From: an uncultured cyanobacterium
GTDB lineage: Bacteria; Cyanobacteriota; Cyanobacteriia; PCC-9006; JAAUQQ01
Reading direction: 5' to 3'
DNA length: 64,000 nt
Assembly: GCA_963718615.1 (NCBI GenBank)
Contig: OY970368.1
Coordinates: 2,240,001 to 2,304,000, forward strand
Shown here: positions 4,316 through 7,306 of the stretch, piece after piece
Layout of the letters: the number at the start of each line of letters is the position of its first letter
Position numbering within the stretch: the stretch's first letter is position 1
Notes under the pieces: generated by a model
What the model was told of the DNA's origin: nothing
Databases searched by the model: none
The model's input: only the letters and a program-made list of their open reading frames with translations
Program-made: the position numbers and the translations under genes

Positions 4316-5029
4316 CTAATCCAGCGCCGTTCGCTTTGAAAACCAAGCGTGAATGAAAAGAGTTTGGAAAAACAACACCGGAGTATCGAATCCACCCGCT
4401 GCGATAATTGCTTCAATTTCCGGTGGGGTTAAAGCTGCGAGGTGAAGACTCCAGGCAGTGCGCATTCTTTCGATATCTTCTTCACCCCAGCCAGAGCCTC
4501 CGAGCATTCGCAGCCAAACTTCAATCAAACTTTGATGAATCGGAGCCGACAGACCGAGAACTAGATCTGAACTGATCAAAATTCCACCGGGGTAAAGGCG
4601 TTGTGCGATTTGATTGAAAAAGTGGCTCCGCTCTGCCGCTTCTTTCAAGAATTGAGAGACCAAAAGGCAAGTCGCCGCATCGAATGGATCAGAAGCGGGC
4701 AGCGAGTCGAGATAGCCTTCGTGGAACGTGCAACGTGAGGTAATTCCATTTTCTTCGGCTTTTTGACGGCAGATATCCAGCATTGCAGACGCAGGCTCAA
4801 CCGCTGTGAAGTGACATTGCGGAAAGACTTGTGCCAGAGCGATCATTTCCGTTCCGGTACCGACACCGACACACAGAATTCGCGCCTCAGCCGGAAGCTC
4901 GGCGAAAATCAGGCGTGTTAACGAAAAGAGTGCTTCGCGTGAAGATGCCCAACCAGCGGTTTTCTCGTCGTAGGAAGCCGCAGCTTTTTGGTTGTCAAAT
5001 GGCATCATGGCTGACTGTTGGTTCTGCAT
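4316..5029 (-). CDS. Class I SAM-dependent methyltransferase (probable gene cassette)
   Basis: SAM motif ILCVGVGTG, plus AVEPASAML and FDAATCLLVSQF. Confidence 0.85.
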   Translation of the reverse strand: MQNQQSAMMPFDNQKAAASYDEKTAGWASSREALFSLTRLIFAELPAEARILCVGVGTGTEMIALAQVFPQCHFTAVEPASAMLDICRQKAEENGITSRCTFHEGYLDSLPASDPFDAATCLLVSQFLKEAAERSHFFNQIAQRLYPGGILISSDLVLGLSAPIHQSLIEVWLRMLGGSGWGEEDIERMRTAWSLHLAALTPPEIEAIIAAGGFDTPVLFFQTLFIHAWFSKRTALD

Positions 5030-5224
5030 GATGGAAATAAAAGATGCTCCAACTAAATTTTACAAATCACTTTCGTTCATTCACACGCATATCTCCTCAA
5101 CAAACTCAAACTCCTGTGAAGCCTAACGTTGCCCATCACCCGCCGTAGATAACCTTTGCAATAACTCATTAACTTTTAGCGGTCGGTGTGCATGGGCGTT
5201 ATGGGGGGACGGGGGAGAAGAAAC

Positions 5225-5490
5225 AGGAAGAGACGACTATGCATTGGACGACACAGAGGATGTCTACTAACATACCGAATCGCTCATCCCTCTCCCATTC
5301 GCGAATTTGACAGAACCGCATAAAGTCAAGAAAGGAGAGAATCTGCCAGCTAGTCGGGACGACTATGCAGCGCCAGTCAGAAGATGACTACTAACATATC
5401 GAATCGCCCGTCCAGCCAATCCAATCGCGTACCGACGAATCCTCAGGGAGTAGGGAAAGACTCTTTCCATAATCTCTTCGCTTTGCGAGC
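5225..5490 (+). ncRNA. Predicted bridge/seek RNA of the IS110 element (two target-binding loops and one donor-binding loop)
   Basis: Three units of stem, guide, hairpin, guide, stem. Target guides TGCATTGG/CTAACATA and TGCAGCGC/CTAACATA resemble the attC target. CCTCAGGG (5441-5448) and CCATAA (5467-5472) match the circle junction. Boundaries are approximate. Confidence 0.75.
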
Positions 5491-5534
5491 GGGGGCAGAC
5501 TCTCCATCCAACAAAACACCCTCAATCTAGCACA

Positions 5535-6800
5535 ATGAAACTCAACCTCAGCACAACCGTTTATGCTGCCTATATCGGCATTGATTGGGCAGACCGCAAA
5601 CACGATATTGCTCTCTATGACTGCCAGAACGAGACCTGGGAGCAATCCACCATTCAGGCCACTCCTCAGGCGATCGCGGATTGGGTCAACCAATTACGAA
5701 AACTCTATGGAGAGCGCAAGCTTTTGGTGGGATTGGAGCAGAAACGTGGACCTTTGCTCTATGCCCTGTGCCAATATGAGAATCTGGTACTAGTGCCCAT
5801 CAATCCCAGAACTGTGGCGAACTATCGAAAAGCGTTTCAGCCCTCTCGGGCCAAATCAGACCCGATTGATGCCAAGCTGATTATCGAATTGATGCAAAAG
5901 CATGGGGAGAAGCTCGATATTTGGACAGCGGGTTGCCCGAAGCATCGTGCGTTGAGACAATGGGTTGAATCCCGTCGGATGTTAGTCGGGGAGAAGGTGC
6001 GGCTCACCAATCGCATTACTGCTGCGCTCAAATCCTACTTTCCCCAAGTGCTCGATTGGTTTGAAGACAAAGACACGACGGCGTTTTGTGAGTTTCTCGA
6101 ACGATTTCCCAATCTACAGGCTGCTCAAGCGGCCACAGCTCATGAATTGAGACAGTTCTTTCGTCATCATCACATCATTCGTAAGGCAACCATTCAACGA
6201 CGCACTCAGCAAATTCAAGACGCGGGTCCAGCCTTGACAAAAGATGATGCGATCATCGTCCCCGCCCAAGCTTTGATGTTGGGTTTAGTGGCTTTATTGA
6301 AAGTTGTTTTGTGTCAGTTGATTATCTTTGAACAGCAAATCGAATCGTTGTTTGAATCTCTACCGGATGCAACTCTCTTTCGGGCATTACCCGGAGCAGG
6401 TCCACATTTGGCACCTCGATTACTGGCAGCGTTTGGGGAAGACCGTACTCGCTTTGACTGTGCTCAGGCTTTTCTGAGTTACATCGGCATTGCACCGGTT
6501 AAGGAAGAAAGTGGCAAGAAACGTTGGGTCCATTGGCGTTGGTCTTGTCCTATCTTTCTGAGGCAAACTTTTGTCGAGTGGGTCACCCATGCTCGGTCTC
6601 GCTCGCTCTGGTCACAGGCATTTTATCAACAGCAACGACTAGCGGGTAAATCTCATCAAAAGGCTATTCGTGCTTTGGCTTATAAATGGGGACGAATTCT
6701 TTGGCGGTGTTGGCAGGATAGGACTCCTTATGATGAGGAAAAGTATCTCGCTGCTCTCCGGTGCAAAAACTCTCCTTTGGTCGCTCTTTTACCGGCTTAG
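5535..6800 (+). CDS. IS110 family transposase/recombinase
   Basis: DEDD RuvC-like N-terminus (YIGIDWA, GLEQ, KSDPIDA) and C-terminal LPGAG...GIAPVKEESG serine motif. Confidence 0.95.
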   Translation: MKLNLSTTVYAAYIGIDWADRKHDIALYDCQNETWEQSTIQATPQAIADWVNQLRKLYGERKLLVGLEQKRGPLLYALCQYENLVLVPINPRTVANYRKAFQPSRAKSDPIDAKLIIELMQKHGEKLDIWTAGCPKHRALRQWVESRRMLVGEKVRLTNRITAALKSYFPQVLDWFEDKDTTAFCEFLERFPNLQAAQAATAHELRQFFRHHHIIRKATIQRRTQQIQDAGPALTKDDAIIVPAQALMLGLVALLKVVLCQLIIFEQQIESLFESLPDATLFRALPGAGPHLAPRLLAAFGEDRTRFDCAQAFLSYIGIAPVKEESGKKRWVHWRWSCPIFLRQTFVEWVTHARSRSLWSQAFYQQQRLAGKSHQKAIRALAYKWGRILWRCWQDRTPYDEEKYLAALRCKNSPLVALLPA

Positions 6801-7066
6801 GTCTCTGTCTTTTTGCTCGATTGAACTGCTTTAGGTTTTGAACCAATCGAATACGAAAAATACGAAGATGGCTCTGATAGCTCAGTTCGGCTGAGACTCA
6901 AAACTGACTATCAGGTGGTTTGTGCTGGCTTCAATTCGCTCGGATATTACATCAGAGTTATTTTGTATCTTCTCTATTGACCCCGTCCGCCTCAGGGCCT
7001 ATGTTATGCTGCGTTGCCATCTTTAGCTTTCGTTCTCAATCACTAATGCCTCAAGTGCTGAAACTG

Positions 7067-7306
7067 TCAACTTTCCTCATAAGCCTGTAAGAATTCATCC
7101 CGTGATATACCTGACTGAGTACAAATTGTTCTCAGTGTAGATCCCTTGATCTGTTTGTGGTTAGGTAGGGTTAAAGGTGTTGTCGTACCATCTTCATTTT
7201 CTCGAACCATTGAAATGTGCTCCCGCTCTCTAACGACTTGAAATCCTAAAATTCCGAGTGCTCGAATGACTTTTGCTTTGGGCAAATCAACCGGAAACTT
7301 TGGCAT
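7067..7306 (-). CDS. hicA: HicA family toxin
   Basis: 79 aa; LGFQVVREREHISM...TLPNHKQIKGSTLRTI pattern. Confidence 0.85.
   Translation of the reverse strand: MPKFPVDLPKAKVIRALGILGFQVVREREHISMVRENEDGTTTPLTLPNHKQIKGSTLRTICTQSGISRDEFLQAYEES

Follow-up and report, generated by a model that had tools for sequence, protein, structure and literature searches.

A cyanobacterial IS110-family insertion sequence whose leader is predicted to encode a bridge RNA with two target-binding loops for attC-like sites

A stretch of 64,000 nucleotides (nt) from the genome of an uncultured cyanobacterium (assembly GCA_963718615.1, contig OY970368.1, positions 2,240,001 to 2,304,000), referred to here as the window, contains an 1803-bp insertion sequence (IS) of the IS110 family that interrupts an attC-like site. 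The element consists of a recombinase gene and, upstream of it, a left non-coding end of 336 nt (5199-5534) that contains three loops. The comparisons below leave little doubt that this leader encodes a bridge RNA of three modules, namely two paralogous target-binding loops and one donor-binding loop. Probably both target loops direct insertion, into different attC variants. From the sequence we infer that the RNA is produced, that the recombinase binds it and that both loops are active. The principal features, all on the plus strand, are:

5199-7001, plus strand: insertion sequence of the IS110 family, 1803 bp, delimited by comparing empty sites with junctions and by clade-specific right ends
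5230-5285, plus strand: target-binding loop 1 (U1), with outer stem 5230-5236/5280-5285 and left guide TGCATTGG at 5240-5247
5334-5344, plus strand: 5′ strand of the basal stem, pairing with 5497-5505 (RNAalifold prediction and compensatory pair counts)
5356-5409, plus strand: target-binding loop 2 (U2), with outer stem 5356-5362/5404-5409 and left guide TGCAGCGC at 5366-5373
5434-5481, plus strand: donor-binding loop (U3), with left donor guide CCTCAGGG at 5441-5448 and right donor guide CCATAAT at 5467-5473
5497-5505, plus strand: 3′ strand of the basal stem (RNAalifold prediction and compensatory pair counts)
5535-6800, plus strand: gene for an IS110-family DEDD recombinase of 421 amino acids (Pfam DEDD_Tnp_IS110 and Transposase_20)

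The recombinase carries the two domains by which the IS110 family is recognised, DEDD_Tnp_IS110 (PF01548; E 2.2e-27, 96.2 bits against a cut-off of 29) followed by Transposase_20 (PF02371; E 4.6e-16, 59.4 bits against a cut-off of 21.3). In the leader, U1 encloses an inner hairpin (5250-5264) and the right guide CTAACATA (5267-5274). U2 repeats this plan, with its inner hairpin at 5375-5389 and the same right guide at 5391-5398, and U3 has an inner hairpin at 5452-5464. The two target loops are direct repeats that share a 12-nt block with 100% identity and a 36-nt block with 86% identity. Their scaffold, GACGACYAT-N20-32-CTAACATA, occurs twice in the window and in none of 100 shuffles. The left guides TGCATTGG and TGCAGCGC differ in the second half of the 8-nt segment, and the accompanying change in the inner hairpin is compensated. 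Left guides are highly variable among the homologues, and the right guide is constant. A predicted long-range basal stem encloses U2 and the donor loop and leaves U1 outside.

Each loop can be matched to DNA at the ends of the element or in its flanks. The 5′ side of U3, CCTCAGGG, is identical to the right end of the IS at 6990-6997, and its 3′ side, CCATAAT, reads across the junction as the reverse complement of A7001 followed by TTATGG (5199-5204). TAACATA, present in both U1 and U2, is the reverse complement of the right flank; the 3′ side common to the two loops, CTAACA-TA, is complementary to TGTTAG and the element's two final bases. On their 5′ sides both target loops are similar to the left flank, and the left guide of U1 agrees with TGCATGGG (5189-5196) in 7 of its 8 nucleotides. 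All of these matches obey a single strand rule: the 5′ side of a loop repeats the top strand left of the crossover, and so would pair with the bottom strand, and the 3′ side complements the top strand right of the crossover. With the most likely target and junction sequences (below), the guides leave gaps around the crossover, of 2-3 nt for the target and of 3-4 nt for the donor, and only the right donor guide crosses the junction, by one base. A preliminary description of this locus had proposed the three units and these guide matches, and both were borne out; its equal 2-nt gap in target and donor gives way to the unequal gaps above.

The layout is a property of a clade rather than of one copy. 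Homologues were collected by protein-seeded scans (80 loci of 248 confirmed relatives in reference genomes and 80 of 278 in metagenomes). In a quick maximum-likelihood tree of 94 rows, on which loop number was labelled partly by regular expression and by eye, all 30 two-loop rows fall within one clade of 32 rows (Shimodaira-Hasegawa approximate likelihood-ratio test, SH-aLRT, 96). The other two rows of this clade are L041, which has a single hybrid loop, and L057, which is cut by a contig end and was left unscored. Layouts with one target loop characterise the sister clade (nine rows) and the other cyanobacterial clades; among the 41 distant rows (46-54% identity, mostly Pseudomonadota and Acidobacteriota), loop number was scored for L080 only. 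The two-target-loop layout is conserved down to ∼66% recombinase identity.

Base changes among the homologues follow the proposed structure. When 25 two-loop leaders are aligned, 93.6% of 949 cells in the proposed helices are paired, compared with 36-52% when the partners are slid. Eleven helix pairs have changed on both sides, a count reached by none of 500 shuffles. The helices of U1 and U2 are 96-99% paired, and the inner-hairpin pair is A-U in 33, U-A in 28 and G-C in 1 of 62 units, so the compensated hairpin first noted for U2 in the window recurs in many elements. The donor loop covaries with DNA as well: donor guide and right end read CAGGG/CAGGG in the two-loop clade and CAGAG/CAGAG in the sister clade, a guide-to-DNA covariation that amounts to one changed position between two clades. 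Separately, the leaders of L134 (alignment A3 columns 253-277; ACATGCTGCGCACACGCTACGCGAC), L132 and L066 carry related insertions of ∼25-30 nt, all containing ...CACGCT.CGCGA.C..., that break up either the donor loop or the 3′ stem of U2. The insertions may represent a small mobile repeat.

Such conservation bears on the simplest alternative, a neutral tandem duplication without RNA function whose guide matches are coincidental. Scanning 4900-7300 with Rfam covariance models gave no match at E<=1, and the single-sequence minimum-free-energy fold of the leader is unexceptional (z -1.07), as would be expected of such a duplication. Given these two results, the case for a structured RNA rests on comparison. 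Comparison makes neutrality extremely unlikely: the layout is kept at great recombinase divergence, compensatory changes preserve the helices, donor guide and right end covary, the scaffold recurs in the window and never in its shuffles, and guides are associated with flanks at p<=2e-4, as set out next.

Agreement between guide and insertion site was scored as the best match, out of 8, of a left guide to the final bases of the left flank, at offsets 0-4, with shuffled pairings as the null. Single-loop relatives gave a mean of 6.71/8, compared with 4.99 for shuffled pairings (n=14, p<=2e-4), which validates the guide assignment. For two-loop elements, 43 curated insertions were scored after 14 rows had been dropped (seven with a missing or unclear flank, six duplicates and one truncated end) and L041 had been set aside. 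U1 was the better-fitting guide at 22 of these insertions and U2 at 19, with 2 ties; the preliminary description had proposed looking for such a division among the flanks of other copies. The permutation results were as follows, with p-values that are optimistic because the insertions are not independent (related elements, recurring attC types):

Best of the two guides, n=43: observed 6.53, shuffled 5.77, p<=2e-4
U1, all 43 insertions: observed 5.67, shuffled 5.02, p<=2e-4
U2, all 43 insertions: observed 5.28, shuffled 5.04, p∼0.03
U2, 23 sites where U1 scores at most 5: observed 5.70, shuffled 5.23, p∼0.005
U1, the same 23 sites (control): observed 4.22, shuffled 4.30, p=0.82

Guides and insertion sites therefore covary across homologues, for U1 over the whole set and for U2 at sites that U1 leaves unexplained, with some insertions fitting neither guide. 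Individual elements illustrate the division. For example, the metagenome elements L129 and L130 have almost identical recombinases, and L129 lies at a site matched 8/8 by its U1 and L130 at a site matched 8/8 by its U2. A further 25 insertions were scored by hand, with U2 the better guide at 15, U1 at nine and one tie; insertions in G131, G132 and G367 (5, 2 and 2), for which U2 was not recovered, were left out of U2 scoring. Among the hand-scored genomes, G018 has one site matching U1 at 7/8 and three matching U2 at 7/8, and G085 has two U1 sites (7 and 6) and two U2 sites (7 and 7). All four sites in G392 agree with U2 at the sole position where its two guides differ. G290 has one U1 site (7/8), three U2 sites (6/8) and one site that fits neither. 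Elements whose U2 starts with TCC insert at xCCA flanks although their U1 starts with TGC.

Further copies in the genome that contains the window (G000, one contig of 6.1 Mb) add to this picture. Besides the full copy in the window, which is the sole full-length element of its type there, this genome has a second, diverged full copy, three internally deleted copies and several fragments. The second full copy shares 72% DNA identity and 82% protein identity with the window copy and carries the guides TGCATCGC in U1 and TCCAACGA in U2. Two remnants of this second type lie beside the flanks TGCATCGC (8/8 to U1) and TCCAACGA (8/8 to the U2 of the full copy); the remnants themselves keep only U1. 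A scan of the genomes of five relatives for further copies found none beyond those already included.

Several observations weigh against the reading in which U2 is a second guide. Matches to U2 are weaker, with a score of at least 7/8 reached by U1 at 19 of the 43 insertions and by U2 at three, and the association of U2 over the whole set is weak (5.28 compared with 5.04). Many U2 guides resemble consensus L′ boxes (TGCA[AG]CG, TCCAACG), so part of their fit to flanks could be background similarity. Some recent insertions fit either guide poorly, in G023 (5/8 for both, or 4/8 and 3/8), at L253 in G290 and at L278 in G017, and insertions that fit neither guide indicate that the left guide is not a strict filter. 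The gap of 2-4 nt left uncovered at the crossover is unlike IS621, the model of which may not transfer exactly. The non-independent insertions, the partly manual loop labels on the quick tree, the unremarkable fold and the lack of an Rfam match in the scanned region belong on the same side. As for L253 (G290 C1:627440-627850), its left end adjoins ...CCTCAGAGGCGA, which is like the right end of a sister-clade element and not like an attC flank; it could be an insertion beside the end of another element, or a tandem arrangement.

The first three of these points, taken at face value, would leave one active target loop: U1 would guide, and U2 would be a conserved structural part, such as a scaffold for folding or recombinase loading, that resembles flanks through the attC consensus. 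We judge this unlikely. U2 and the donor loop lie together within the basal stem, in the position of the single target loop of the sister clades, and a purely structural loop would not be expected to maintain 8 nt of hypervariable sequence next to a right guide that does not vary. Moreover, U2 scores 8/8 or 7/8 where U1 scores 5 or less at L130, remnant B of G000, three G018 sites, two G085 sites and L236, and the insertions of the TCC-starting elements at xCCA flanks follow U2 despite the TGC of U1. The multiplexed bridge RNA of the preliminary description, reaching two attC families, is supported on computational grounds: the layout is conserved in a clade, helices and donor guide covary, and flanks track U1 or U2. 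Its U2 arm is the weaker one in the set of 43 insertions.

The arrangement within the leader also suggests how two loops arose. Single-loop elements of the sister clade, read by eye, have an analogous basal stem around their single target loop and donor loop. Since U2 and the donor loop occupy that position, U2 is, as judged from the compared layouts, the ancestral target loop and U1 an addition. L041 (REEB459 contig), inside the two-loop clade, has one hybrid target loop that combines a U1-type outer stem with a U2-type inner stem, and its flank TGCATGGG fits a U1-type guide that it no longer carries. This is consistent with a deletion by recombination between the repeats after insertion.

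The placement of U1 outside the basal-stem domain would also accord with a division of labour, in which the two loops serve different reactions (one insertion, the other excision or regulation) or U1 is a decoy that titrates the recombinase. According to PMC13626964, 10.1101/2025.10.25.684509 and 10.64898/2026.08.31.748434, excision and insertion differ mechanistically in the IS110 family. Nonetheless, we consider a division of labour very unlikely, as the right guide and scaffold are identical in both loops and both left guides track left flanks. The guide is the sole sequence feature that would separate U1 from U2 functionally, and excision, for which the left target has to be recognised just as for insertion, calls for no loop of its own.

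The terminal features and the interrupted site are:

5121-5198, plus strand: left part of the interrupted attC-like site, with R″ core GCCTAAC (5121-5127) and TGCATGGG (5189-5196) followed by CG
5207-5214, plus strand: left arm of the sub-terminal inverted repeat, GGACGGGG, with its partner CCCCGTCC at 6981-6988
6977-7001, plus strand: right end with the -35 box TTGACC (6977-6982), a 17-nt spacer and the TA of the -10 box, from comparison of right and left ends and a motif search
7002-7009, plus strand: right part of the attC-like site, TGTTATGC, with R′ core GTTATGC (7003-7009)

The core consensus of attC is RYYYAAC for R″ and GTTRRRY for R′. All copies in G000 lie in the same orientation in sites that start with a RYYYAAC-like box and end with GTTRRRY, and insertion is specific for site and orientation, with the L′-side flank at the left end of every copy. 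Uninterrupted attC-like sites were sought by a loose pattern scan and a context search; the loosest pattern returned mostly noise, and its hits were kept only in the right context. Sites of the same type elsewhere in G000 read ...GTGCATGGGCGT-T-TGTTATC and ...GTGCATTGGGTT-TGTTAGCC, that is, ...GGGCGT-T-TGTTAT and ...GGGTT-TGTTAG around the crossover. They fold as imperfect hairpins closed by both boxes, with statistically weak z-scores of -1.6 to -2.1. The left flanks of insertions fall into recognisable contexts, such as GGTCGGTGTGCAT.., GTTCCGGTGCAGCG.. and CCGTCCGC.CCAACG... One further candidate, in which U2 reads the other (R″-L″) arm of the same attC, was rejected: the match is only 5/8 at the window copy, by eye, and no pattern supports it. 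Beside the interrupted site, on the strand opposite to the attC orientation, lies a gene for a 237-aa S-adenosylmethionine (SAM)-dependent methyltransferase-like protein (4316-5029, minus strand; Methyltransf_25, E 1.5e-15).

An integron integrase gene is also present in the genome (C1:948656-949594); it scores 443.8 bits with the NCBIfam model TIGR02249, whose cut-off is 265. Fragments of integrase occur around 3.860, 4.646, 4.713 and 1.907 Mb, in the vicinity of other copies of the IS. A near-identical motif, GCGTCGGTTGCAGCGAT.TGTTAATTCGT, occurs three times in G000, at C1:948371 (plus strand), 4665902 (minus strand) and 5045066 (minus strand). One copy is ∼285 bp upstream of the intact integrase gene and could be an attI-like site. 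The motif matches the left guide of U2 at 7/8 and also matches most of the right guide.

To set the boundaries, 34 right ends recovered from 46 loci were compared with empty sites. The four nucleotides 3′ of CAGGG are clade-specific (ACTA in 19, CCTA in nine, GCTA in four and others in two), and the six nucleotides that follow the IS are TGTTAG in 24 and TGTTAT in seven, or 31 of the 34, as in empty sites. The base that precedes TTATGG at the left junction differs between copies and sites. Together, the clade-specific bases of CCTA type, the empty-site sequence and the variable base before TTATGG define the element as TTATGG...GGGCCTA, 5199-7001, with a one-T ambiguity that makes 5200-7002 equally possible. 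No target-site duplication is present, just the one ambiguous T common to both junctions. The sub-terminal inverted repeats fall within the 7-17 bp range given for the IS1111 group in the excerpted text of PMC11208160, and in G023 both arms are altered together (GGGAGAC / GTCTCCC).

These boundaries revise two sequences of the preliminary description, which had assigned CCTA to the target. The window target most likely reads TGCATGGG-CG(T)-TGTTAT and not TGCATGGG-CC-TATGTTA. The circle junction is probably CCTCAGGGCCTA joined directly to TTATGG and not CCTCAGGG-CG-TTATGG, whose middle bases appear to be wrong; the preliminary description had named a different junction as a refutation, but both donor guides still match the revised one. 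The joined ends of the excised circle would probably read ...CCTCAGGGCCTA followed by TTATGGGG....

This junction creates TTGACC-N17-TATTAT, a near-consensus promoter motif present only in the circle, as the -10 box TATTAT is complete only when the TA of the right end joins the TTAT of the left end. TTGAC[CT] is retained in most of the right ends listed. No promoter was found by motif search inside the left end, between 5050 and 5535, and transcription probably starts from the predicted promoter formed only at the circle junction. Junction promoters are described as an established feature of IS110/IS1111-type families in the excerpted text of PMC11187229. In the integrated state, TTGACC and the TATGTT of the target form an outward-facing promoter-like site at 6977-7005 (9/12 matches, a consensus match only), directed into whatever lies past the attC site.

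From these elements a mechanism can be proposed, with the steps after transcription drawn by analogy with IS621. The junction promoter of the excised circle would transcribe the leader and the recombinase gene, and recombinase dimers would load on one target loop and on the donor loop. The donor loop would read the joined circle ends (CCTCAGGG...ATTATGG). The right guide common to U1 and U2 would recognise the conserved TGTTAG of the attC R′ box, and the left guides would recognise the variable L′ side, TGCATTGG by U1 and TGCAGCGC by U2. Either target loop could then pair with the donor loop, enabling one element to insert into two attC sequence classes.

Some copies in G000 have undergone rearrangement. 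The two second-type remnants, at C1:1920899-1920974 (minus strand; in locus L016/L238) and from C1:4836446 to about 4836525 (plus strand), consist of the left end and U1 through the right guide. Both are fused directly to the TGTTAG of attC, creating the palindrome CTAACATATGTTAG. That two independent sites have this unusual deletion end-point in common suggests a specific rearrangement rather than random decay. In addition, three derivatives of ∼1 kb, at C1:3852975-3853986 (plus strand), 3845755-3846752 (plus strand) and 4716675-4717592 (minus strand), are without most of the recombinase gene (query ∼524-1353). Both ends are retained, as are the three loops; the derivatives occupy different attC-like sites and look like non-autonomous copies mobilised in trans. 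A bolder idea, which we regard as distinctly unlikely, is that two attC-specific loops, on one RNA or on two RNAs in one synaptic complex, bring the recombinase onto two attC sites and lead to target-to-target recombination. If so, cassettes could be deleted, inverted or shuffled without the integron integrase, and the element would be more than a passenger in cassette arrays: it would edit them under the direction of its RNA. The remnant end-points and the mobilised derivatives indicate that unusual site-specific rearrangements occur around the loops; neither shows a target-to-target mechanism.

The closest point of comparison is IS621, described here from the excerpted texts of PMC11208160 (Durrant et al. 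2024) and PMC11208158 (Hiraizumi et al. 2024). In IS621, the target loop precedes the donor loop in the bridge RNA (PMC11208160). Separate target-loop and donor-loop RNAs support recombination in vitro, and the recombinase-loaded target and donor loops come from separate RNA molecules (PMC11208158). Because separated loops are functional there, an additional target loop could serve as an alternative in its own right. The present element resembles IS621 in having its RNA region at the left end, 5′ of the gene for a DEDD recombinase, with an inner hairpin for each internal loop (PMC11208160, PMC11208158). It shares the target-before-donor order, the strand rule and guides that covary with target and donor DNA (PMC11208160), and the TA after the right target guide matches the last bases of the donor, much like handshake guides (PMC11208158). 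It differs in having two target loops instead of one. Its guides leave a gap of 2-4 nt, whereas those of IS621 overlap on a core dinucleotide; donor and target share only a single T unambiguously, not a core dinucleotide. The sub-terminal inverted repeats are of 7-8 bp, as in the IS1111 group, compared with 2-3 bp, and the target is a structured attC site.

Bridge RNAs have been described as bispecific, with one target and one donor loop. Full-text searches, which did not extend to supplements, turned up no account of a second target loop in a bridge RNA, and searches on bridge RNA together with attC or cyanobacteria returned nothing relevant; the excerpted texts of PMC11208160, PMC11208158, PMC11187229, PMC13604230 and 10.64898/2026.10.21.760802 describe only RNAs with two loops in total, or longer guides. 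If the reading is true, a lineage that has long kept two differently programmed target loops would indicate that multiplexing in cis is tolerated, and that evolution has hedged between variants of a variable target. The lineage is also a ready scaffold, with natural guide variants, for testing how loops compete for the recombinase and for designing multi-target bridge RNAs. Closer to home, single-loop cyanobacterial relatives (e.g. L142, L062, L064 and L148) share the scaffold motifs (GACGAC..., CTAACA...), the donor loop, the kind of attC-like target and the basal stem, and differ in carrying a plain hairpin in the 5′ leader at the place of U1.

The second comparison is with the IS1111-attC group (ISKpn4, ISPst6 and ISPa25), again as given in the excerpted text of PMC11187229 (Siddiquee et al. 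2024). Common to both are the DEDD recombinase, sub-terminal inverted repeats, RNA-guided targeting, and insertion at a constant point, and in a constant orientation, close to one end of attC. The preliminary description had likened the present element to ISPa25 and ISKpn4, and here the likeness ends: the seekRNA of those IS1111 elements is encoded on the 3′ side of tnp, and its top-strand match precedes its bottom-strand match (PMC11187229), whereas the RNA region here is upstream and the order is the opposite. One pair of target matches is described there (PMC11187229), compared with two target loops here. Within 6801-7001, downstream of the recombinase gene, no match of at least 7 nt to the target flanks was found except AAGATGGC (6865-6872), which corresponds to sequence of the right-hand flank, ∼20 nt away from the insertion point. 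The upstream RNA, the reversed order and the two target loops thus mark the element, on sequence criteria, as part of an attC-targeting DEDD lineage that is separate from the IS1111-attC group. This would be a second attC-targeting DEDD lineage, with its RNA upstream of the recombinase gene and widespread in filamentous cyanobacteria, and it bears on the disruption and reshaping of chromosomal integron arrays.

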